Notes: a model not told the origin generated them from the letters alone. 46,736 nt of DNA from Draconibacterium orientale (GCA_020719345.1 DYQJ01000002.1:1-46736), one strand, 5' to 3'; positions 13,741-26,629 are shown, counted from the first letter of the stretch. Made by a program: numbers and translations.

Positions 13741-13784
13741 GTTATAATTCAATAAAATTTATAAAAAATTAAACATTTGTGATT

Positions 13785-14888
13785 ATGGAAATCAAAATAA
13801 ACGACAAAATAAAATTCCTAAACGACATAGGTGGCGGAACGGTAATAAAAATAATAGATAAAGAATTAGTATTAGTGCGCACCAATGATGGATTTGAATA
13901 TCCGGTCAGCAAAAAAGAAGTTATCAAATCCGAAGAAACCGATTTCTTTATTACTACCGAAGACATAGTAGAAGACAAACAAAAAAGCACAAAGAAAAAT
14001 ACGAAGAAAAAAAATACTGTCATCATGGAGGACGGCGAAGAAATAGAGACCAAAATTGACTTGGAAGAGTTGTATTATCAAAAACCTACGGATGAGATAA
14101 ATATTTTTTTGGCTTTTGTCCCGCAAAATCAGAAAGATATAATTAATTCTAATTTAGATATTTATCTAATTAACGACAGCAATTTTAACTTCTTGTTCAA
14201 TATTTTACGAAAAAATAGTGATAATTTGTTTCTCAGCAACACAGGAAAATTAAGTGCAAATACAAAAGATATTATAGCTAAAATCAAGCGCGAAGATATT
14301 GTTGAATACGAGAATCTCTACTTCCAATTTATTTTCTTTAAAAACAATGCGCACCAATATAAAAAAAGTGTGGAAAAAGAAATTAAGCTAAATCTTACTA
14401 AGCTCTTTAAAGAGGGAAGCTTTGTTACTAATGACTTTTTCAATATGAACGCTTTTATTGTTACAATATACGAAGAAAATATGATGGAAGAAGTTGTAGA
14501 AAGCATTAATAAACAACAAATTAGCAAAGTCATATTTAATAAAGAGATTAAAAGTCAGAATATCAACACGCCACGACAATATTCTAAAAATATTACCAAT
14601 CTACAAATAGAAGTAGATTTGCATATCCACCAGCTCTTAGATGACCACAGCGGACTCAAACCTGCCGAGATATTAGAGATACAGATGCAACATTTTCATA
14701 AACAGATTAATGATGCTATAAAAAATCCTAAGGTAGACCGTATCGTCTTTATACATGGACTCGGAAATGGGACATTAAAGACCGAACTCACCAGAGAATT
14801 AGACCGAAATTACAAAAAGTACAAATATCAAGATGCCTCGTTCAAAGAATACGGATACGGAGCAACTCTGGTATTTATCAAACATTAA
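13785..14888 (+). CDS. Smr-domain protein (Bacteroidota N-terminal domain plus C-terminal Smr)
   Basis: The C-terminus VDLHIHQL...VDRIVFIHGLGNGTLK matches the Smr/MutS2 C-terminal nuclease domain. The first ATG is at 13785, while the track ORF begins at a GTG at 13779. Confidence 0.75.
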   Translation: MEIKINDKIKFLNDIGGGTVIKIIDKELVLVRTNDGFEYPVSKKEVIKSEETDFFITTEDIVEDKQKSTKKNTKKKNTVIMEDGEEIETKIDLEELYYQKPTDEINIFLAFVPQNQKDIINSNLDIYLINDSNFNFLFNILRKNSDNLFLSNTGKLSANTKDIIAKIKREDIVEYENLYFQFIFFKNNAHQYKKSVEKEIKLNLTKLFKEGSFVTNDFFNMNAFIVTIYEENMMEEVVESINKQQISKVIFNKEIKSQNINTPRQYSKNITNLQIEVDLHIHQLLDDHSGLKPAEILEIQMQHFHKQINDAIKNPKVDRIVFIHGLGNGTLKTELTRELDRNYKKYKYQDASFKEYGYGATLVFIKH

Positions 14889-15030
14889 TGGTTCTTCTAT
14901 GATTTTTGTGAGATACCTGATTTTTTAAGAAATTTAATTTTAAATCTTGCGTGAAACTTTTGATTATCAATTTCTCGCAGAGTTTCGCAGAGTTTCGCAA
15001 AGTTTTCCACAAAAGTCATTCAAGAACCAT
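14888..15030. mobile_element. MITE-like element, copy C (~23-bp imperfect TIR ATGGTTCTTCTATGATTTTTGTG / CCACAAAAGTCATTCAAGAACCAT)
   Basis: TIR matches 20/23. The interior gcgtgaaacttttgattatcaatttctcgcagagtttcgcagagtttcgcaaag equals the reverse complement of the modules in copy A. It abuts the Smr stop codon. Confidence 0.65.
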
Positions 15031-15047: not shown

Positions 15048-15749
15048 TCAGACCGTTAAAATATTATTTCCAATTTCATCTATTATTATTTTCTGATTTT
15101 CAAAGTTTTCAACTATAGAGAAACCATTATAAAACGGTTCAATTTGCAAATAGCGTTGCCGGTATAATTCGTTTCCTTGTTTATCAATATGGAACCAACC
15201 GTTTACGTCTTTTGCGGTAGCATAATCTTTGTGAAATATTCCTAAATCAAGAAAATATTTTCCGTTTAGGTTGTTTCCTTGTTTATCAATATGTTTCCAG
15301 CCGGTTTGATTTTTCACACAACAATAACCGTCTTTGTAATCTCCTGCATAAAAATATTCTTCGGTGTAGATTCGGTTGCCGTTCTTATCAAGATGAAAAT
15401 ATTTATTGTTTTGTGTTCTGACGGTGCAAACATTTTCCTGATAATTTCCGCACCAAGAATAATTTTCGTTGTAAATTCGTTCTCCATTTTCATTGATATG
15501 AAACCAATCATTTTGATTATCAATCACTGCGGCACAATTGCAATAAAAACCGAAGCATTTTAAATAACGTTCTTTGTATAATTCGTTTCCATTTATATCA
15601 ATATGAAACCAGCCCGATTTGTCTTTTACAGGCGCCAGACCGGGTGCGTGAAATTTCATAACTTTTTCAAATTCTTTATCAAAAAGTTTATTGTTTTGAA
15701 AAAGAAAAAACTTGCTGTCCTGTGATATTTGTATGTCGTTGTATTTCAT
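15048..15749 (-). CDS. WG-repeat (KWG-like) protein with no signal peptide
   Basis: About 8 repeats of WFHI(D/N)xxGNxxY and WKHIDKQGN. The ATG overlaps the upstream stop (ATGA at 15746-15749). Confidence 0.75.
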   Translation of the reverse strand: MKYNDIQISQDSKFFLFQNNKLFDKEFEKVMKFHAPGLAPVKDKSGWFHIDINGNELYKERYLKCFGFYCNCAAVIDNQNDWFHINENGERIYNENYSWCGNYQENVCTVRTQNNKYFHLDKNGNRIYTEEYFYAGDYKDGYCCVKNQTGWKHIDKQGNNLNGKYFLDLGIFHKDYATAKDVNGWFHIDKQGNELYRQRYLQIEPFYNGFSIVENFENQKIIIDEIGNNILTV

Positions 15750-17179
15750 TTGTTTAGCAATATATTTTTAACTAAAGAAATTTGATTTACATTTAATAGA
15801 CACGAAAGCAAATATTTTTCAATACCACCTTCTTGCTCAATTATTTCTAAAATAATTTGCAAATGTTTTAAATCCACGTCCATTTCGCTTGCTAAATAAT
15901 CGTTGTTAATGCTTTGTAAATTTGCGTTAGAAAGTAAATGAAACAACGTAATTACAAAACCTGTTCGGTCTTTACCTGCCAAACAATGTATGCAAATTGA
16001 ATTATCACTGTTGGCGATAATTGTTTCTATTATTATTTTAACACTTGATTTACAATCTAATACAAAATATTTATACGCAATTTCAACGTTTGTTCCGGTA
16101 TTAACTAAATTTTTAAATTCAAAACTTTGTTTCCATGGGTTAAAAGGTGCGCGAACAATGTTATATTTTGATTTTAAATTTTCGGAATAACTATTTTCAT
16201 CAATTTCTCTGTCGGCTCTTAAATCTATGATTGTCTTTATGTTAAGTTTTTGAAGCGTCTCAATTAAAATGTTTTCTTCTTTGATAAGAGAAAGTGCTGA
16301 GCTACGAAAAATAAATCCGTTTTTGATTTTTTTATTAAATTTGGAAATATCTCTAAAATTCCAAAAGAAATCGCGTTTGTAGATTGTTTCAAGAAAGCTA
16401 ATTATGTCATTTGTTTGTAGTTGTAGGTCAAATTTTGAATTAGCAATTTCTAAATATTTTATAAATAAATCGAGTAATTTTCGTTTGTGCCAATTAGCCA
16501 GACGCAAATCCATTGTTCCTAATTTTTCAATTTCTAAGTTTTGTTTGTAACTTATCGAGGTTAAAAAATTATTTGGCATGTAATCGTGTTCGGTATTTCC
16601 TTGGCAAAAATAAACAAGTCGGACAACTGCATTCAAAGCGTGTGAAAATAAAACATTGAATTTATAGCCGTCACTCTTAGAATGATTATAAGAACAGCCC
16701 TCAAAACGATTTTGAAATTCTGTGATTAAATTTTTTATTTTGTAAGAGAATTCTTTGGCGAAATTTTTTTGTTTTAAAAGCGTGATATTATTCAGATATT
16801 CCAAAATAGAATTAGATTTATCAAAAATGATAGTGTTTTCCGGCACTTTAATTTCAGAGCCAAGAAAATATTTATCAATTTCTGTTTTTGAATAGCAAAC
16901 AAATATTTCGGTAATCATAAAAATTTCCGAAAAATAAAAACACCATTTATTTTTTTCAGACAAAAATAACATATATTTTAGTTCGTCTTGAAATTCTTTT
17001 TTTAGGTTATCTACAAAAAGATTATTATCAAAATCTTTTGTTACAATTATTTGATAGTCAATATCGCTATTAGGTTTAGGTGTTCGGCGACCAAAACTTC
17101 CTATGAGCAAAACAGTTTCTATTGTTTCTGTTTTAGCGAAAAAAGTATTTAATTTTTTTATTAAATTATATTGTATCAT
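15746..17179 (-). CDS. Fusion protein: Pol-beta-superfamily nucleotidyltransferase (ANT/KNTase-like) plus C-terminal Cys-based protein-tyrosine-phosphatase-like domain
   Basis: The N-terminus has IGSFGRRTPKPNSDIDYQIIV (GSx..DxD NTase motif). A helical middle region follows. The C-terminus has IIDLRADRE and CIHCLAGKDRTGFV (HCx5R(T) P-loop). Confidence 0.7.
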   Translation of the reverse strand: MIQYNLIKKLNTFFAKTETIETVLLIGSFGRRTPKPNSDIDYQIIVTKDFDNNLFVDNLKKEFQDELKYMLFLSEKNKWCFYFSEIFMITEIFVCYSKTEIDKYFLGSEIKVPENTIIFDKSNSILEYLNNITLLKQKNFAKEFSYKIKNLITEFQNRFEGCSYNHSKSDGYKFNVLFSHALNAVVRLVYFCQGNTEHDYMPNNFLTSISYKQNLEIEKLGTMDLRLANWHKRKLLDLFIKYLEIANSKFDLQLQTNDIISFLETIYKRDFFWNFRDISKFNKKIKNGFIFRSSALSLIKEENILIETLQKLNIKTIIDLRADREIDENSYSENLKSKYNIVRAPFNPWKQSFEFKNLVNTGTNVEIAYKYFVLDCKSSVKIIIETIIANSDNSICIHCLAGKDRTGFVITLFHLLSNANLQSINNDYLASEMDVDLKHLQIILEIIEQEGGIEKYLLSCLLNVNQISLVKNILLNK

Positions 17180-17313
17180 ATTTTAATTGAGTTTATAAAA
17201 ATGTTAGTAATTGTTTTATTTTTGTTTTTTTTTAAAATGATTGAAACTGCTGTCTTTTCAAAATAATTCTCACGTGTTATTTTCATAATTATTTATTTTT
17301 TTTAGTAAAAAGT

Positions 17314-17344
17314 TTTGTTGTTATGTATAAATGTATTATCTTTG
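17314..17344 (+). promoter_or_regulatory. Consensus Bacteroidota promoter on the + strand (TTTG-N19-TAtcTTTG), unit 1
   Basis: tttg at 17314-17317 and tatctttg at 17337-17344. This is one of three copies of the same ~70-nt element. Confidence 0.55.
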
Positions 17345-17350
17345 TTCTAA

Positions 17351-17434
17351 TAAAAAAGATTATGAAAGGCAGTGGCTTTCACGCAAAACCGGCACCGAGA
17401 ACTGTTCTGTCGGTTTTCTTTTTTATTTTTTTTT
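17351..17434 (+). ncRNA. Candidate small RNA 1 (promoter to stem-loop plus T-run)
   Basis: aaaaccg(17385-17391) pairs with cggtttt(17411-17417) and is followed by cttttttattttttttt. No credible ORF. It converges on the 3' end of the frameshifted small gene. Confidence 0.35.
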
Positions 17435-17825
17435 ACGCAAATCAAAAGCCGTTAATATAAATTTTTTATTTTTTCCTTTCCACTCAGTTATTATTACAAC
17501 TCTAAACATATCACTTTCAAGTAAAATTTTTTGTTGTTTCTTTTGCTTTAACAAGATTCCCTAACTTTGCTATTATAGGTATAAAGTCTTCAATATTAAA
17601 TCCTAATTCTTTAATTTCGTGTCCATGTTTTTCGTAAATATGTTTTAAACCGTACCCTTTATTATTTTTATCATTTTCGCCCCAAACAATATCAATATAA
17701 CCTATGTCTTCTCTGTATAAAGCATTTATACATTCGCCTTCTTGCACCTTTAATAAAAGTTTTATTGCTTCCTTCGGTTTGTTTTTAAATTCCGTATAAA
17801 CCGTTCCAAATTCGTTTTTTTCCAT
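17423..17825 (-). pseudogene. Small H-x-KH protein paralogue 1, interrupted by a 1-nt frameshift in an A6/T4 run
   Basis: The ATG at 17825 is preceded by a -7 box TAtcTTTG (rc of 17847-17854). The reading frame stops at 17517. The +1 frame continues as ILLESDMFRVVIITEWKGKNKKFILTAFDLRKKK to 17423, which is homologous to the C-terminus of paralogue 2. Confidence 0.6.
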
Positions 17826-17990
17826 TTTATCATTTTTAATTTCCTGCAAAGATATATTATTTTTCAACAGTTTGATTTCTATTTGCAACAGTTTGGGCGT
17901 AAATGACATGATTTTCATATATTATTTTTTTAGTAAAAAATTTTGTTATTAATTATAAATGTATTATCTTTGTGCTAATAAAAAGTTGTT
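17578..17990. repeat. Tandem direct repeat, copy 1 (period 662 bp; near-identical to 18240-18652)
   Basis: Same sequence at offset 662 with few mismatches. It covers the 5' two-thirds of the small gene, its leader, and the + strand promoter element. Confidence 0.85.
17942..17972 (+). promoter_or_regulatory. Consensus Bacteroidota promoter on the + strand (TTTG-N19-TAtcTTTG), unit 2
   Basis: tttg at 17942-17945 and tatctttg at 17965-17972. Confidence 0.55.
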
Positions 17991-18092
17991 TTTCGGAGCA
18001 GTGTTCCGTTAGTAAAATTAATGGCGAATGCGCTTTCGTTAATTCCAATTTTTCAGAAACCTGTAATTTATTTTACAGGTTTTTTATTTTTT
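17979..18092 (+). ncRNA. Candidate small RNA 2 (~110 nt) ending in a 10-bp stem intrinsic terminator
   Basis: aaacctgtaa(18057-18066), a 6-nt loop, then ttacaggttt(18073-18082), followed by tttattttttat. The T-run is only on the + strand. The stop codon of the convergent gene (18068-18070) lies in the loop. Confidence 0.4.
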
Positions 18093-18487
18093 ATCGGTCT
18101 CAAATCAAAAGCACTCAATAAAAATTGCTTGTTTTTTCCATTCCATGTTGTTTTAATTATCACTCTAAACATTTTACCTTCTAAATATATTTTATCATCT
18201 TTTTTTGACAAAAATAAGTTTCCAAATTGCACGACAATAGGTATAAAATATTCAATATCAAATCCTAATTCTTTAATTTCGTGTCCATGTTTTTCGTAAA
18301 TATGTTTTAAACCGTACCCTTTATTATTTTTATCATTTTCGCCCCAAACAATATCAATATAACCTATGTCTTCTCTGTATAAAGCATTTATACATTCGCC
18401 TTCTTGCACCTTTAATAAAAGTTTTATTGCTTCCTTCGGTTTGTTTTTAAATTCCGTATAAACCGTTCCAAATTCGTTTTTTTCCAT
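18068..18487 (-). CDS. Small H-x-KH protein paralogue 2 (intact; possibly a barnase/EndoU/colicin-E5/RelE-like PBECR-type nuclease)
   Basis: The likely start is MEKNEFG at 18487, with a -7 box TAtcTTTG 21 nt upstream (rc of 18509-18516). Contains GYGLKHIYEKHGHEIKELGF and a C-terminal LLSAFDLR. The family assignment is tentative. Confidence 0.6.
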   Translation of the reverse strand: MEKNEFGTVYTEFKNKPKEAIKLLLKVQEGECINALYREDIGYIDIVWGENDKNNKGYGLKHIYEKHGHEIKELGFDIEYFIPIVVQFGNLFLSKKDDKIYLEGKMFRVIIKTTWNGKNKQFLLSAFDLRPIKNKKPVK

Positions 18488-18652
18488 TTTATCATTTTTA
18501 ATTTCCTGCAAAGATATATTATTTTTCAACAGTTTGATTTCTATTTGCAACAGTTTGGGCGTAAATGACATGATTTTCATATATTATTTTTTTAGTAAAA
18601 AATTTTGTTATTAATTATAAATGTATTATCTTTGTGCCAATAAAAAATTGTT
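18240..18652. repeat. Tandem direct repeat, copy 2
   Basis: See 17578-17990. A third partial copy containing only the promoter element lies at 17281-17352. Confidence 0.85.
18604..18634 (+). promoter_or_regulatory. Consensus Bacteroidota promoter on the + strand (TTTG-N19-TAtcTTTG), unit 3
   Basis: tttg at 18604-18607 and tatctttg at 18627-18634. The downstream ~100 nt contain tacggct/agccgta pairing but no clear terminator. Confidence 0.45.
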
Positions 18653-18735
18653 ACGGCTCTAAAAACGCTGTCCTTACTGACTACGAAAAATCACAGTATC
18701 GGAAAGAAAAGAGAAACAAGCCGTAGTTAATTGTT

Positions 18736-19116
18736 TCAAATGGGTGCGTTCCTTTGCCATAGCAATTTTTTATTTTTTAGATAGCTATTTCGCATTGGAG
18801 TTGCCGTCATCACCAAATAATATTCTCCATCATATTTATAAGTTAGTTCTACTACCGCAATATTACTTTTATGTTCATCTTCCACGATTAAAAATATAGA
18901 GTTGTTTTTTCCTTGCCTAATAACATTAAAATTTATTGTGATAATTTTAATATAATCTAATGGATTTAAACCTAATGCCTCTAACTCTTTACTATGTTTT
19001 TTATCAACATGAGTAATACTTTTTTCATTTGCAATAATTTTATCTGGCTTGTTTCTTATTATTTCCGCAATTTCTTGCGTAATTTCACCAACCACATCAA
19101 ATTCTTTATTTTCCAT
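18736..19116 (-). CDS. Small H-x-KH protein paralogue 3 (divergent member of the same family)
   Basis: Starts MENKEFD at 19116 behind the same leader (aattaaaaatgataaaATGgaaaa) and a -7 box (rc of 19138-19145). THVDKKHSKELEALGLNPLDYIKII aligns with KHIYEKHGHEIKELGFDIEYFIPIV. TATPMR aligns with LSAFDLR. Confidence 0.6.
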   Translation of the reverse strand: MENKEFDVVGEITQEIAEIIRNKPDKIIANEKSITHVDKKHSKELEALGLNPLDYIKIITINFNVIRQGKNNSIFLIVEDEHKSNIAVVELTYKYDGEYYLVMTATPMRNSYLKNKKLLWQRNAPI

Positions 19117-19153
19117 TTTATCATTTTTAATTCTCGGCAAAGATATTTTTCAT

Positions 19154-21504: not shown

Positions 21505-22632
21505 TCAATTAGTATATAAAATATAGTTTTGATATATTTTAGCAATTCCTTCCTGCATGGTTATTTTAGGTTTCCAGCCGTATCCGTTAATTTTTTCTAC
21601 GTTAAGTAATTTTTGTGGTGTTCCATCTGGTTTGTTGGTATCCCATTCTATGTTACCTTCAAATCCGACAGTATTTTTTATCATTTCGGCGAGCTGCAAT
21701 ATGGTTAAATCTTTTCCGATTCCTATGTTTATATGAGTATTTTTAATTTCTGGAGTTGTCATCGGATAAGAATAATCAGTGATGTTATATTCTTTGAGTA
21801 ATATGTCCGTAAAATTTAAGTTCTTCATAATAAACACGCATGCATCTGCCAAGTCGTTAGCATGCAGAAATTCGCGTTTCGGAGTTCCAGTTCCCCATAG
21901 TTTTACTTCGGCAGTTTTATTAGTTCTAATTATTCCGTATTTATGTAAAATATCTAATATACAATTCATATCACTTTCGCCGGTTACTTTCTCTATGGGA
22001 TATTTGTTCAAATCTTGTCGTATTGTGTCCCAATTTTCATTCATTAAAGCTTTCGCAAGGTGCATTTTTCTTAGTATTGCGGGTAGTACGTGCGATTTTT
22101 CCAAGTCAAAATTATCATTATATCCGTACAAATTAGTAGGCATTACGGCGATGAAGTTTGTTCCGTATTGCAAATTGTAGCTTTCTACTGTTTTTATGCC
22201 GGCAATTTTAGCGATGGCATAAGGTTCATTGGTGTATTCTAATGTGTCGGTGAGTAAATATTCTTCTGCGATAGGTTGTTTGCAAAGTTTAGGATATATG
22301 CACGAGCTTCCTAAGAACAACAATTTTTTAACGTCATACTTATAAGCACAATGAATAATATTACTTTGAATCATAATATTTTCGTAAATAAACTGTGCGC
22401 GATAAGTATTATTTGCAACTATACCACCAACTTTAGCTGCTGCTAATACGACATATTCGGGTCGTTTGCTTTTAAAAAAGTCTTCTACTTGTGATTGGTT
22501 TATCAAGTCATATTCTGGATATGGAGTGTAAACTAAGTTGTTATATCCGTCTTCGTGTAATTTTCTTACAATAGCACTACCTACAAGTCCGGTGTTTCCG
22601 GCTACATAAATTTTAGATTTTTGTTCCATCAT
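21505..22632 (-). CDS. fcl: GDP-L-fucose synthase (GDP-4-keto-6-deoxymannose 3,5-epimerase/4-reductase)
   Basis: VAGNTGLVGSAI, AAAKVGGIVANNTY, LLFLGSSCIYPK, NEPYAIAKIAGIK, MPTNLYG and KPDGTPQKLL align along the length of E. coli Fcl. A ~40-aa insertion is present. Confidence 0.9.
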   Translation of the reverse strand: MMEQKSKIYVAGNTGLVGSAIVRKLHEDGYNNLVYTPYPEYDLINQSQVEDFFKSKRPEYVVLAAAKVGGIVANNTYRAQFIYENIMIQSNIIHCAYKYDVKKLLFLGSSCIYPKLCKQPIAEEYLLTDTLEYTNEPYAIAKIAGIKTVESYNLQYGTNFIAVMPTNLYGYNDNFDLEKSHVLPAILRKMHLAKALMNENWDTIRQDLNKYPIEKVTGESDMNCILDILHKYGIIRTNKTAEVKLWGTGTPKREFLHANDLADACVFIMKNLNFTDILLKEYNITDYSYPMTTPEIKNTHINIGIGKDLTILQLAEMIKNTVGFEGNIEWDTNKPDGTPQKLLNVEKINGYGWKPKITMQEGIAKIYQNYILYTN

Positions 22633-22642
22633 TATATTATTT

Positions 22643-25600
22643 TTACAGTTTTATACCTACAATAGTTATATCATCTCTTTGTTCTGAATTAGCTTGGAAT
22701 TTAATAAGTTCGTTATCTAATACTTCTTTTTGTGTGTTCATCTCAAGATGACAAATATTTTGCATTATTTGTATCATTCGTTTTTGCTTGAAGCTGTCTC
22801 TGTTAGGATTATTTTGGTCTGCATATCCGTCAGAGGTTAGATATATAATACTTTGTTTGAGAAGCGCAATTGTCGTGTTTTCAAATTTTTCGGTATTATA
22901 CGTTGATTGTCTTCCACCTGCGGATTTGCGAGTTCCGGATATTTTGTTTATTATCATATCTGTGGCATTTAGATAGAATAGCGGTCTCTTGGCGCCGCAA
23001 AAAGTGACATTATAAAGTTTGGGGTTTTCCTGTTCTATTCGGCACAAACAAATATCCATACCGTCATTGTTATGACTTTCTTCTTGATTCAGCGCTTTAA
23101 TAATATTTTTATTTAACATGTCCAAAATATCAGCTGGCGAATATATATTTCGTTCATTTACAATTTCATTTAGCAAACGGTTACCTATCATAGACATGAA
23201 TGCTCCTGGTACGCCATGCCCTGTGCAGTCGATGACTGCGATAAAATTATAGGTTGTTTTTTCGGTAGCGGTTTCCACATTTTTAGACGAAAACCAATAG
23301 AAGTCTCCACTAACTATGTCTTTAGGACGATATAATATAAAATTGTCATAAAATTTTTGGATCCATTTTTCTGAAGGTAAAATAGCTTGCTGTATAGTTT
23401 CTGCATAATTAATACTCTTTTTTATATTATCATTTTGAAATTCAATCTTCTTATTTTTTTCACGTATCTCCATCTCCGCTTCTTTGAGTTTAGAAATATC
23501 GGCATCTATACCTATAATTTTGATTATTTGAGAGTACTCGTCTAATATTGGGGTTAGTGTTGTCTGTACCCATATTTCTGTTTTCTGTTTTGAACAGAGC
23601 TTTTGTTCGAAAATAATAGTGTGCTTGGTATCAATAAGTTGGTCAAATATTTTAATCATATTAGTATTTTTAAAACTCTCTTTAATATTTGTGCCATATA
23701 CCGCAGTGTACTCGTCTATCTGATATCCGTACAGTCGTGTGAATCCTTCGTTTATCCACTCTATTTCGCCGGTGTTGTCAGTAATTATAATTGCATTGTC
23801 GGTTTCTGCGGCTACAATAGATAATTTTAGTAGTTCATCATTAATGGCTTTTAGTTCTTCTGCTTGTGCTTGAATTTCGTCTTTTTGTTGATTTAAGAGT
23901 TGGTTTTTTTGCATTATTTCCTGCGTTCTATCTACTACTTCTTGTTCAAGTTTTTGTTTTTGACGTTCTATTCTTTGCAGTCGCCATCTGAAAATGGATA
24001 ATACTAAAAAGATAATAAAAAAGAAGGACATTATTCGGAAGAGCCATGTTTCCCAGAATGGTGGATGTATAATAATAATCAACGATTTCCCTACTTCGTT
24101 CCATGTTCCGTCATTATTAGAGCCGCGGACTTTAAAGACATAACGTCCTGGGTCAATGTTAGTATAATACGCCAGACGATGCGAGGCACTTGCTTTTAGC
24201 CAATGTTTATTAAATCCTTCTAATTTGTATTCGTACTCGTTTTGCGAGGGATTGCTAAAATGAAGCGCCGAGAACTCGAAGGCAAAAATTTCATCGGTAT
24301 AAGATAATTCTATTTTGTCGGTTAAAATAATAGATTTTTCCAATTTCTCGCCTATTTTTACTTCTTCATTAAAAAGTTTAAAAGATGTGATGACAATCGG
24401 TGGCACAAAATCGTTATTTTCTATTTGTTCGGGGAAAAAAGCATTTAAGCCGTTAATACCACCGAAAAATAGTTCCCCTGTTTTGCTTTTACAACCGGCG
24501 CCCCAGAAAAACTCTTTACTTTGTAATCCATCATTTTCGTCGAAGATAGTGAAACGTTCTGCCTTGACATCTAATTTAGATATTCCTTTATTTGTGCTTG
24601 CCCATATATTTCCTTCCGAGTCGTCGTATAAACAATAAATAACATTATTAGAGAGTCCATCTGCTTCAGTATATGCAACAAAATTCGGGGTCTCTTTGGT
24701 AAAACTTAATTTGTTTATCCCTCCGCCAAAAGTTCCTATCCATATATTTTGTTGTTTGTCTATCAATAAAGAGATAATTCTGTTATCGCCAAGCGAATTA
24801 ATGTCGTCTTCTGTGTGTTTAAAAATTTCTACTTTTGTATCTGCTATATTTCCATTGTAATTTATTTTATTTAATCCCTGCCATGTTCCTACCCAAATAT
24901 TTCCTTGCGCATCTTCTTGTATAGCAGCTTGAATACTTGTGCTACTTAAAGTAACAATTTCACTAAAACGGATAAAGCTGTCCTTTTTTTTATCGTACAA
25001 ATTTAATCCTTTTGCTGTGCAAATCCAGAGATTTTTGCGAGTATCTTCATAAATAGCTTGAATCGTGTTGTCGGAGATAGTATTTTTGTCGGTCTCCGAA
25101 AATTTGTAATTGATAAAATAATCTATCTTAGTCAGTCCATTTCTTTCATTCTTTTTCTCCACAGCTCTATTTAATCCATGTTCCCATGTTCCTATCCACA
25201 AATTGCCGTAGCTGTCGCGAAGCATTGCGGTAGGAGTGTTAGAACTTATTGTTTTAGAATTATTTTTATTGTGAAGATATTTATCTGTTATTAAAGAGTT
25301 TCTGTCAAAATGTATTAATCCGCCCTCGACGAGTCCTAACCAAAGTGAGGCATCGGTATCTTCATACACTGCGCGAACTGTTTTATCAGGAATGCTGTTC
25401 GGATTTGAGATGCTATTTTGATATAACATGAACTTATTAGATTTTTTATCGTACTTGCTAAGTCCTCTTTCCCATGTACCTATCCAAATAATTCCGGCAT
25501 TGTCTTGAAAAATGCTTGAGATGTTGTCATGATTTATTCCCTTGGGATTTGAGGCGCTGTGCTTGAAGACATAAAAATTGTCGTCTTTGCGATTATAAAT

Positions 25601-26497
25601 ATTTAATCCGTTACTTGTTCCTATCCAGACATTGTTATCAGCATCAACAAAAATCTTTGTTACTATATTGAAGCTCAAGCTGTTGTTATCATTTTCTTTA
25701 TTGGCGTACTTTGTTATTTTCTCTTTAGTAGGTTCATATCTGTACAATCCAATTTTACTGCCTATCCATATTTCTCCATTTTTATCGGTAGTTATAGATA
25801 AGATAGCAGGAAAAGTGTTCTTTTCAAGATTAAAATAGGTTATCTTATTTGTTTTTAAGTTCAAAATATTTACTCCGCGTTCAGTTCCTATCCACAGATT
25901 ATTTTTTTTATCTAACATAAGTGCGTTCACTTTGTCGTTTGCAATAGTATTGCTGTCGTTTTGGTGTCTGAAGTGTGTAAAAATATTTTGTTTGACATTA
26001 AATTTATTTAGTCCATAGTTTTCTGTTCCGAGCCATAAATTACCGGTTTCATCTTCTAATATGCAACGGATGACATTGTCGGATAGCGAGTTCGTGTTTT
26101 CTGGGTCATGTTCGTAATGTGTAAAAAGTTCATTTTCTACATTATATCTGTTTAAGCCATCTCCATTTGTTCCTATCCATAGCGTATTGTCGCGGCAGAG
26201 ATAAATATCAAAAATTATATTTCCGGAGATTGAATTATTTGCGTTCTTCTCTTTTTTAAATATTGTAAAATCATATCCATCATATCTGTTCAGTCCATCG
26301 TGTGTTCCAAACCAGATGAAACCCAAGTTGTCTTGCACTATACTAAGAACCGAGCTTTGTGAGAGTCCATCATCTATAGAGATATGCTCAAAGCGTATAT
26401 TCTGTGATATAACGGGCTTAATAACAACAAATAACAATATTAGCAACAGCCAAATACCTAAATATCCGGGTCTAAGTTTTCTAATGGATAGGTTCAT
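22643..26497 (-). CDS. Sensor protein: periplasmic two-component-regulator beta-propeller repeats plus Y_Y_Y, TM, coiled coil, PAS and PP2C/SpoIIE phosphatase
   Basis: Many W(I/L)GT..GL repeats, then a TM (WLFRIMSFFFIIFLVLSIF). PAS (IIITDNTGEIEWINEGFTRLYGY) and a C-terminal SGDFYWF...DGYADQ...RDDITIVGIKL follow. The first ATG is at 26497, while the track ORF starts at a TTG at 26533. Confidence 0.85.
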   Translation of the reverse strand: MNLSIRKLRPGYLGIWLLLILLFVVIKPVISQNIRFEHISIDDGLSQSSVLSIVQDNLGFIWFGTHDGLNRYDGYDFTIFKKEKNANNSISGNIIFDIYLCRDNTLWIGTNGDGLNRYNVENELFTHYEHDPENTNSLSDNVIRCILEDETGNLWLGTENYGLNKFNVKQNIFTHFRHQNDSNTIANDKVNALMLDKKNNLWIGTERGVNILNLKTNKITYFNLEKNTFPAILSITTDKNGEIWIGSKIGLYRYEPTKEKITKYANKENDNNSLSFNIVTKIFVDADNNVWIGTSNGLNIYNRKDDNFYVFKHSASNPKGINHDNISSIFQDNAGIIWIGTWERGLSKYDKKSNKFMLYQNSISNPNSIPDKTVRAVYEDTDASLWLGLVEGGLIHFDRNSLITDKYLHNKNNSKTISSNTPTAMLRDSYGNLWIGTWEHGLNRAVEKKNERNGLTKIDYFINYKFSETDKNTISDNTIQAIYEDTRKNLWICTAKGLNLYDKKKDSFIRFSEIVTLSSTSIQAAIQEDAQGNIWVGTWQGLNKINYNGNIADTKVEIFKHTEDDINSLGDNRIISLLIDKQQNIWIGTFGGGINKLSFTKETPNFVAYTEADGLSNNVIYCLYDDSEGNIWASTNKGISKLDVKAERFTIFDENDGLQSKEFFWGAGCKSKTGELFFGGINGLNAFFPEQIENNDFVPPIVITSFKLFNEEVKIGEKLEKSIILTDKIELSYTDEIFAFEFSALHFSNPSQNEYEYKLEGFNKHWLKASASHRLAYYTNIDPGRYVFKVRGSNNDGTWNEVGKSLIIIIHPPFWETWLFRIMSFFFIIFLVLSIFRWRLQRIERQKQKLEQEVVDRTQEIMQKNQLLNQQKDEIQAQAEELKAINDELLKLSIVAAETDNAIIITDNTGEIEWINEGFTRLYGYQIDEYTAVYGTNIKESFKNTNMIKIFDQLIDTKHTIIFEQKLCSKQKTEIWVQTTLTPILDEYSQIIKIIGIDADISKLKEAEMEIREKNKKIEFQNDNIKKSINYAETIQQAILPSEKWIQKFYDNFILYRPKDIVSGDFYWFSSKNVETATEKTTYNFIAVIDCTGHGVPGAFMSMIGNRLLNEIVNERNIYSPADILDMLNKNIIKALNQEESHNNDGMDICLCRIEQENPKLYNVTFCGAKRPLFYLNATDMIINKISGTRKSAGGRQSTYNTEKFENTTIALLKQSIIYLTSDGYADQNNPNRDSFKQKRMIQIMQNICHLEMNTQKEVLDNELIKFQANSEQRDDITIVGIKL

Positions 26498-26629
26498 CTT
26501 ATTACTTTTGAAAGATAAAAAAAACAAACTCAAATATAACTTTTTTGTTTTAATAAAACAAATTTTAATAAAATTTTATATAAATTTGTTGATATTTTGT
26601 TTTTATTGTATATTTGTTGAAAAATTCTT

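Follow-up and report, generated by a model that had tools for sequence, protein, structure and literature searches.

What is the function of a pair of overlapping genes at positions 15048-17179 of a 46,736-nt stretch of Draconibacterium orientale DNA (GCA_020719345.1, DYQJ01000002.1:1-46736; hereafter the window)? The first gene encodes a fusion of a nucleotidyltransferase (NTase) with a protein tyrosine phosphatase-like (PTP) domain, and the second a protein of 233 amino acids (aa) composed of WG repeats (WG233). A preliminary description of the locus considered the pair compatible with a conflict, toxin-modification or signalling system. Our analysis points elsewhere: with a probability of roughly 0.6, the two genes do not form a system by themselves but make up the distal end of a conserved and co-translated operon for biosynthesis, the operon making a modified glycoside and the fusion dephosphorylating an intermediate and optionally O-nucleotidylylating it.

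Both open reading frames (ORFs) lie on the minus strand exactly where the preliminary description had placed them (Table 1), and the translational coupling proposed there is confirmed by the sequence, in which the stop codon of the fusion gene (15746-15748) is the TGA of an ATGA that also starts WG233. Comparably tight packing of the two genes was found in related loci. The fusion and WG233 are strongly conserved elsewhere and are therefore real genes, not chance ORFs.

In the Pfam scan, the fusion matched Polbeta (PF18765; aa 8-66, E 3.8e-7, 30.6 bits versus a cut-off of 26.9) and Y_phosphatase3 (aa 273-442, E 1.6e-27, 97.5 bits versus a cut-off of 22.2), with NTP_transf_2 just under its cut-off (20.7 versus 21 bits). 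The sequence contains the motifs G27-S28...D39-I-D41 and the P-loop HCLAGKDRTG (H398-G407). When a profile of 21 diverse relatives was searched against PDB, aa 2-266 aligned with residues 23-285 of the 287 residues of LinB, a two-domain lincosamide O-nucleotidyltransferase (3jyy, E 1.9e-7), and the C-terminal part with PtpB of Mycobacterium tuberculosis (1ywf, E 2e-18); E91 aligns with the Glu of the LinB motif 'GEFHF', which we take to be the LinB catalytic base. The Pfam and profile matches bear out the domain composition given in the preliminary description (a Pol-beta-type NTase, a helical region and a PTP domain with an intact P-loop). The AlphaFold2 (AF2) model of the fusion (pLDDT 91.8, pTM 0.81) has helices at aa 125-269, and its Foldseek matches include LinB (3jyy, E 1.4e-8, TM(target) 0.73), 6un8, 8vxb, PtpB (2oz5/1ywf, E 3e-10 to 6e-9, TM(target) 0.57-0.66), a Clostridioides difficile PTP, ANT(4'), ANT(6) and PFA-DSP1. 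A HEPN-like identity of the middle domain was considered and rejected: the 'RFEGCSYNH' segment has R-x7-H instead of Rx4-6H spacing, its Arg is not conserved, and the region aligns with the helical domain of LinB.

Both catalytic centres are conserved among homologues. Residues invariant in the alignment of the 21 relatives are (i) G27, S28, R31, S38, D39, D41 and E91 of the NTase, (ii) S169-D170 of the helical domain, and (iii) W273-N-x-R-D277, D319-L-R321, H398, C399, A401, G402, D404, R405, T406 and G407 of the phosphatase, while the P-loop Lys is near-invariant (at least 90% of the relatives). In a set of 30 genome loci (see below), the NTase motif and HC.AGKDRTG are kept in all full-length copies, and HC.AGKDRTG in every copy with an intact phosphatase domain. 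The P-loop of the fusion fits the signature HCXXGKDR[TA]G, which defines the atypical lipid phosphatases (ALPs), whose loop Asp is the acid/base and whose Lys aids binding of phosphoinositide-like substrates (PMC6409689); the characterised members act on phosphoinositides, and Pho16B also on phytate and other phospho-substrates (PMC6409689; PMC3091653). The MptpB/ALP branch is the best sequence-profile and structural match of the phosphatase domain and shares with it the P-loop with acid/base Asp and extra Lys, the N-terminal 'WNFRD' and the 'DLR' motif, yet the two are only 20-28% identical and the fusion is cytoplasmic, joined to an NTase and situated in a putative biosynthetic operon, unlike a secreted virulence factor or extracellular phytase. 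Similarly, the NTase part has the Pol-beta core, helical substrate domain, GS...DxD motif and third carboxylate of LinB and the aminoglycoside nucleotidyltransferases ANT(4')/ANT(6), but at 13-14% identity, with no link to antibiotic resistance and with a covalent tie to a phosphatase.

The fusion family is old and widespread. A word-indexed search returned 486 relatives, more than 120 of them full-length (472-482 aa) and with identity down to 39%, and a HMMER search of 1.84 billion cluster representatives gave 1728 matches (90 at E <= 1e-30), the best 150 of which are mostly full-length (460-510 aa) with identity down to 23-26%. The preliminary description knew of no account of the architecture; since hundreds of full-length copies exist, it is widespread, and these copies are already annotated, as 'protein tyrosine/serine phosphatase/predicted nucleotidyltransferase' (JGI) or 'tyrosine-protein phosphatase' (NCBI).

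Genomic context was compared in ~110 related loci, consisting of (i) a fusion-anchored sample, the 30 genome loci fetched with the fusion as query, and (ii) a WG233-anchored sample of 80 metagenome loci plus four contigs from exact look-ups, which is unbiased for what precedes WG233. The fusion-anchored loci come from Algibacter, Chitinophaga, Marinifilaceae, Chryseobacterium, Saprospiraceae and Flavobacteriales, and also from UBP6 and metagenome-assembled genomes (MAGs) of Gammaproteobacteria, Omnitrophota and Acidimicrobiaceae. In 28 of these 30 loci, the same strand carries WG233 downstream of the fusion, and 25 of the 30 have a GT4 glycosyltransferase and a radical S-adenosylmethionine (rSAM) enzyme with a SPASM domain directly upstream of the fusion, mostly as one fused protein of ~767 aa. 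The five loci without upstream GT4-rSAM are mostly truncated contigs. WG233-anchored loci have the same gene order wherever the contig is long enough, with rSAM present in nearly all. Thus ordered, the operon comprises GT4 and rSAM/SPASM, a phosphatase gene, an optional Methyltransf_2 O-methyltransferase (~320 aa), an optional NodU/CmcH-type carbamoyltransferase (~560 aa) and WG233, with one or both of the transferases often present between the fusion and WG233. Frequent neighbours are an NAD-dependent epimerase/dehydratase and a divergent AAA+/helix-turn-helix (HTH) regulator; tailoring genes of small-molecule type in the related operons are Methyltransf_2, Carbam_trans_N/C, PhyH, Epimerase and AAA_33. 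The preliminary description had treated the fusion and WG233 as a pair, and they do co-occur in essentially every testable locus.

Some features of individual loci were noted besides. In the Acidimicrobiaceae MAG (L030:603-4168), a distant, 28%-identical NTase-PTP fusion has another context, beside a P-loop kinase-like protein, a His_Phos_1 protein and a PhyH dioxygenase, and neither WG233 nor GT4-rSAM is found at the locus. An ORF of ~99 aa lies between the divergent regulator and GT4 in several loci (L004:3143-3442, L005:342-641, L145:1981-2283, L149:1271-1573 and others); that of L149 matches DUF4258 (26.3 bits versus a cut-off of 25), while the L004/L005 type has no family. Because the divergent AAA+/HTH regulator suggested a sigma-54 promoter, the region upstream of GT4 was scanned with the strict pattern TGGYAY-N5-YTGCH, and none was found in any locus or in the window.

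The position between rSAM and WG233 proved to be interchangeable. In the 79 loci that hold both of these genes, it is occupied by the NTase-PTP fusion (43 loci), by a PTP domain alone (6) or by an unrelated His_Phos_1 protein of 189 aa (27), and is empty in 3; in the WG233-anchored subset, the numbers are 23, 2 and 27, with the same 3 empty positions. One of these three has a His_Phos_1 gene directly after WG233, and the other two contain an inserted transposase (IS-type, 496 aa; L103:5173-6663 and L111). The PTP-only genes, found in Lacinutrix, Dokdonia, Oceanihabitans, Kordia and others, start exactly at the phosphatase domain boundary with 'M(R/K)NFRD', and the junction read in L023 has the PTP start and the rSAM stop overlapping. 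The PTP-only loci were found to contain no NTase module elsewhere. A stand-alone NTase encoded 2.3 kb downstream in L083 was considered as a split-off module and rejected as unrelated, only its core matching (hhalign probability 53%). Since the position holds the fusion, PTP alone or His_Phos_1, the phosphatase step is the core function and the NTase, which is dispensable, an optional add-on. That roughly every second operon has the unrelated histidine phosphatase instead is a sign of a metabolic phosphatase step and not of toxin-antitoxin logic. The exchange of a Cys-phosphatase for a histidine phosphatase at one position is, moreover, a natural experiment on which activity is essential.

WG233 consists of six repeats of ~35 aa; five follow the pattern 'W/Y-x-H-I-D..G..Y', and the C-terminal one has 'IIIDEIGN'. 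Its N-terminus is not hydrophobic (maximum Kyte-Doolittle value 0.35), and the protein is therefore cytoplasmic, so that the cytoplasmic WG-repeat partner of the preliminary description stands. The window copy scores 19.7 bits against Pfam WG_beta_rep (PF14903), below the cut-off of 25.6; most of its homologues carry a precomputed PF14903 match, and the orthologue of L001, a Gammaproteobacteria MAG, reaches 45.6 bits. Nearly all of the 730 homologues have a length of exactly 233 aa and an identity of ~60%, and they are thus conserved more than the fusion; their alignment has 76 invariant columns, among them one His per repeat, and a conserved Tyr closes each repeat. WG233 resembles WG_beta_rep proteins in its repeat length and 'W-x-x-I-D..G..Y' pattern, with relatives passing the Pfam threshold, but differs in its fixed length and six repeats, its cytoplasmic location, its invariant positions, its strict confinement to one operon and the His that stands, in five repeats, for the usual aromatic residue after 'W(G/F)'. 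The AF2 model is all-beta (pLDDT 95.2), Foldseek retrieved only generic beta-propellers (BamB and designed proteins; TM ~0.5), and the PDB sequence search gave no related solved structure. In L001 (7347-9017), WG233 is fused to a Methyltransf_2 O-methyltransferase in a protein of 556 aa, encoded in a rearranged gene order (GT4, fusion, carbamoyltransferase, rSAM, WG233-methyltransferase); this gene fusion is a Rosetta-stone link of WG233 to the O-methyltransferase.

These properties bear on a reading in which the fusion would reversibly modify a protein, nucleotidylylating and/or dephosphorylating WG233 or another target on Tyr, Ser or Thr, with WG233 as a regulated target or an adaptor and with the link to GT4 and rSAM being regulatory. 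PTP-superfamily enzymes and Pol-beta NTases both include members that modify proteins, translation of the two genes is tightly coupled, and the Tyr that ends each repeat is conserved. The NTase module, however, matches small-molecule O-nucleotidyltransferases (LinB, ANT(4') and ANT(6)) over both of its domains, the P-loop is of the lipid/inositol-phosphate type, and WG233 is joined in L001 to an O-methyltransferase of small-molecule type. A dedicated enzyme-target pair would also fit poorly with the small histidine phosphatase that can take the place of the fusion and with the disappearance of the NTase while WG233 stays the same, and we regard protein modification as improbable.

In the window itself, the GT4 and rSAM genes are separate and overlap by 17 bases, while in most other genomes they are fused. 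The rSAM protein has a CxxxCxxC motif from residue 16 and clusters with the protein encoded upstream of the fusion in 25 of the 30 genome loci. Neither GT4 nor rSAM could be named from NCBIfam (maturase families included) or PDB, no family being reached at cut-off; in PDB, GT4 is matched best by 6kih, a sucrose-phosphate synthase and thus an enzyme of synthase-then-phosphatase logic, and next best by PimB'. Between rSAM and the fusion lies an insertion of two PBECR1 genes and a related 134-aa gene, which form a tandem array (region 17290-19149; 662/629-bp unit). The 5' ends of the PBECR1 genes are identical or near-identical, and that of the 134-aa gene has a similar 52-nt segment. Clustering of the 30 genome loci gave no homologue of these genes, and related operons, the WG233-anchored ones included, are tightly packed at this junction. 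The small-nuclease-like cluster noted in the preliminary description is thus real, PBECR1 being found twice, but it is a lineage-specific insertion in an operon that is contiguous in other genomes. A 67-nt element (87-88% identical copies at 17290-17356, 17918-17984 and 18580-18646) precedes the fusion and both PBECR1 genes; on the plus strand it resembles a Bacteroidetes promoter (TTTG-N19-TAnnTTTG) and could therefore initiate a transcript that is antisense to the nuclease genes at their 3' ends. Other loci occasionally have inserts at the rSAM/phosphatase junction, namely a PhyH dioxygenase, an AAA_33 kinase-like protein or a 253-aa protein without known family, the last in the closest relative, L087 (WG233 81% identical). 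The window insertion, the transposases of L103 and L111 and the extra genes of L087, L100 and L017 suggest that this junction tolerates or attracts insertions.

The insertion also bears on the reading as a conflict system, in which an MNT-like NTase-phosphatase would modify or neutralise WG233 or a nearby nuclease toxin in the manner of MntA-HepT. The pair adjoins nuclease-family genes in this genome, the ~99-aa ORFs upstream of GT4 include the DUF4258 match, and the NTase core, minimal and with GS...DxD as in MNT (MntA)-HEPN type VII toxin-antitoxin systems, gives weak matches to MntA (E 0.01, 15.7 bits versus a cut-off of 60), to PADLOC PDC-S09 (E 1e-4) and to MNT antitoxins in PDB. The MNT and PADLOC matches span only the ~60-aa NTase core and are far below family thresholds; the PADLOC models matched the NTase core of the fusion non-significantly, at 13-20 bits, and WG233 not at all. 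The window genes scanned gave no HEPN match, and the partner of the fusion is an all-beta repeat protein of fixed length that outdoes it in conservation. Unlike the NTase of MNT-HEPN systems, that of the fusion has a LinB-like helical domain and is dispensable in the operon, being missing where PTP alone or His_Phos_1 takes its place. Nor is there a compositional island signal around the pair (GC 0.24-0.40 over 11-24 kb, 0.25-0.31 over the fusion and WG233). The conflict reading drew on the neighbouring nuclease genes and repeat element, a neighbourhood that is accidental to this genome; the conserved operon context and the sub-threshold PADLOC and NCBIfam matches speak against conflict, toxin modification or signalling, and we consider such a role very improbable indeed.

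For the favoured reading, a biosynthetic operon for a modified glycoside, the following pathway is proposed, each enzymatic step being assigned by family membership. GT4 and rSAM would assemble a glycoside, and rearrange it, on a phosphorylated acceptor or donor-derived intermediate, whose phosphate the MptpB-type domain would then remove, with Cys399 as nucleophile and Asp404 as acid/base, Lys403 of the P-loop serving an anionic substrate resembling a sugar phosphate or inositol phosphate, and this dephosphorylation would keep the pathway from running backwards. In operons that have the LinB-like module, the module may transfer NMP from NTP to a hydroxyl of the same small molecule, with Mg2+ on D39/D41 and E91 as base, as an optional tailoring or masking step. 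O-methyl- and carbamoyltransferases would tailor the product, which is most likely a methylated and/or carbamoylated glycoside, and WG233 would be the obligatory partner of the tailoring enzymes, either as a substrate-binding scaffold or as a so far unrecognised enzyme.

Pairs of synthase and phosphatase are found in sucrose-phosphate synthase with its phosphatase and in GpgS with the histidine phosphatase GpgP. In octosyl acid formation (PolH/PolJ), a radical SAM enzyme acts on a phosphorylated intermediate and a dedicated phosphatase follows (PMC5365060). The proposed pathway resembles these systems in that a glycosyltransferase and/or rSAM enzyme acts on a phosphorylated intermediate, that an adjoining phosphatase removes the phosphate and that this phosphatase may come from different superfamilies; it differs in that its enzymes are related to theirs at superfamily level at most, that GT4 and rSAM are fused and that a WG-repeat protein is obligatory.

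Several points weigh against the glycoside pathway. All of its enzymatic steps are deduced from family membership, and WG233 has no catalytic fold recognisable by PDB sequence search or Foldseek. Proteins of the histidine phosphatase superfamily can be mutases instead of phosphatases, and L021 and L030 carry the fusion together with His_Phos_1, so the two are not strictly interchangeable. In the window, the PBECR1 insertion parts the pair from GT4 and rSAM, and co-expression is not assured there. SPASM radical SAM enzymes are more often maturases of peptides or proteins than sugar enzymes, and a conserved small basic ORF before GT4 in ~35 of the ~110 related loci favours a peptide substrate.

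This small ORF lies directly upstream of GT4, regardless of the phosphatase variant, and is of two types. Type 1 (29 loci; 44-46 aa) has the consensus 'NHQADIKNxNKGTxGxNxx[YFH]DKNQGNRGKQLNPNQKGKR' (also written NHQADIKNxNKGTxGxNxxYDKNQGNRGKQLNPNQKGKR), and type 2 (6 loci; 32-37 aa) the consensus '..WPSK..GKPSG.GR.NNPPKPKK'. Variable sites by codon position number 9/12/28, and the ratio of synonymous to non-synonymous codon differences is 881/399 in frame and 32/1231 and 38/1227 out of frame, a substitution pattern clearly of coding type; a GC-rich hairpin follows the ORF. Together with the SPASM domain, the small basic ORF suggests a peptide substrate and WG233 as a possible peptide binder. 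The operon could accordingly direct the synthesis of a peptide that is made by the ribosome and modified after translation (RiPP): the SPASM half would cross-link and the GT4 half glycosylate the small basic peptide, the phosphatase, NTase and methyltransferase would tailor it, and the mildly acidic WG233 would act as a binder resembling a RiPP recognition element. The isoelectric points are 10.6-11 for the peptides and 6.0 for WG233, the rSAM protein has no N-terminal recognition domain, and its closest matches, all far below threshold, include the peptide maturases PqqE and SuiB. The small ORF was not detected, however, in about half of the related loci, and it is absent from the 46.7-kb window (hidden Markov models of both types against six-frame ORFs; best E 0.16, inside the PBECR1 genes). 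The operon has no conserved protease or exporter, and its tailoring set (Methyltransf_2, NodU/CmcH-type carbamoyltransferase, PhyH and NDP-sugar epimerase/dehydratase) is typical of small-molecule pathways. With no family found in Pfam or NCBIfam, the ORF may encode a RiPP precursor, but also a small stress protein or a regulatory leader peptide. A peptide product is an alternative to the glycoside, but an unlikely one.

Table 1. Features of the gene pair, its operon and its surroundings in the window, with examples of the small basic ORF from related loci.
Feature	Position	Strand	Evidence or remarks
NTase-PTP fusion gene, 477 aa	15746..17179	minus	ORF; Pfam Polbeta and Y_phosphatase3
Pol-beta NTase catalytic domain, aa 1-120	16820..17179	minus	G27-S28, D39xD41 (17057-17101), E91
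Helical LinB/KNTase-C-like substrate domain, aa 121-268	16376..16819	minus	Invariant S169-D170; near-invariant 'RSDGY'
MptpB-type (atypical lipid phosphatase) Cys-phosphatase domain, aa 269-477	15749..16375	minus	P-loop at 15959-15988
ATGA stop/start overlap of fusion and WG233	15746..15749	minus	Read from sequence; 4 bases
WG233 gene, 233 aa	15048..15749	minus	ORF; six WG-type repeats; core operon member
GT4 glycosyltransferase, 431 aa	20157..21452	minus	Pfam Glycos_transf_1 and Glyco_transf_4
Radical SAM/SPASM enzyme, 339 aa	19154..20173	minus	Pfam Radical_SAM 44.4 bits and SPASM 46.7 bits
Lineage-specific insertion splitting the operon	17517..19140	minus	PBECR1 17517-17918; PBECR1 18068-18580; related 134-aa gene 18736-19140
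Inverted-repeat element, 139 bp	14890-15028		21-nt inverted ends, 3 mismatches; internal short tandem GCAGAGTTTC repeat
Small basic ORF (examples)	L083:3991-4128; L085:1710-1844; L014:2058-2198; L008:3539-3634		~30 further loci

The operon is flanked in the window by genes of other kinds. Downstream, a 369-aa protein with DUF2027 and Smr domains (13779-14888), unrelated to the operon, converges on WG233, and between the two genes lies the element that the preliminary description had called a miniature inverted-repeat transposable element (MITE; 14888-15030). A single element of 139 bp with imperfect inverted ends of 21 nt is indeed present, but no second copy exists in the window, and the element may represent a MITE, but also a palindrome of terminator type or a feature of another kind. 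Just upstream of GT4, a 375-aa Fcl-like epimerase/reductase (21505-22632) differs from the epimerase family of four related operons; it matches GDP-L-fucose synthase in two pieces (435.7 versus an NCBIfam cut-off of 500), which suggests an inserted segment. The adjoining gene (22643-26533) encodes a 1296-aa regulator with a Reg_prop beta-propeller, Y_Y_Y, PAS and SpoIIE/PP2C phosphatase domains and is not conserved at the operon elsewhere.

The constituent domains are all of known families, and the fusion is already in the databases, unnamed. The operon, its interchangeable phosphatase position, the fixed-length WG233 family and the small ORF appear to be undescribed: a literature search (architecture, operon, WG repeats and Y_phosphatase3 fusions), from which subscription journals were mostly excluded and which thus leaves novelty unproven, returned no description of them. 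Tentatively, and at odds clearly below even, we suggest that the operon yields a new product class, either a small basic peptide that has been cross-linked and glycosylated or a methylated or carbamoylated glycoside, rearranged by the radical SAM enzyme and formed via cryptic phospho- and nucleotidyl-intermediates, with WG233 as a new type of enzyme or of substrate-recognition protein and the fusion as a bifunctional tailoring enzyme that dephosphorylates and then nucleotidylylates.

An odd two-gene conflict candidate thereby becomes a defined operon family. Its members number hundreds and belong mainly to Bacteroidota, while relatives occur in Actinomycetota, in UBP6 and in one MAG each of Gammaproteobacteria and Omnitrophota; Algibacter pectinivorans (DSM 25730, locus L010), Lacinutrix mariniflava (PTP-only) and Oceanihabitans sediminis are cultured carriers. 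From the phosphatase exchange, one would expect a phospho-intermediate to accumulate and a nucleotidylated product to be optional. If the product were found, it would give a function to a highly conserved WG-repeat protein and to the GT4-radical SAM fusion, and a natural product so far undescribed, glycoside or peptide, could come to light that is common among Bacteroidota of marine and fresh waters.

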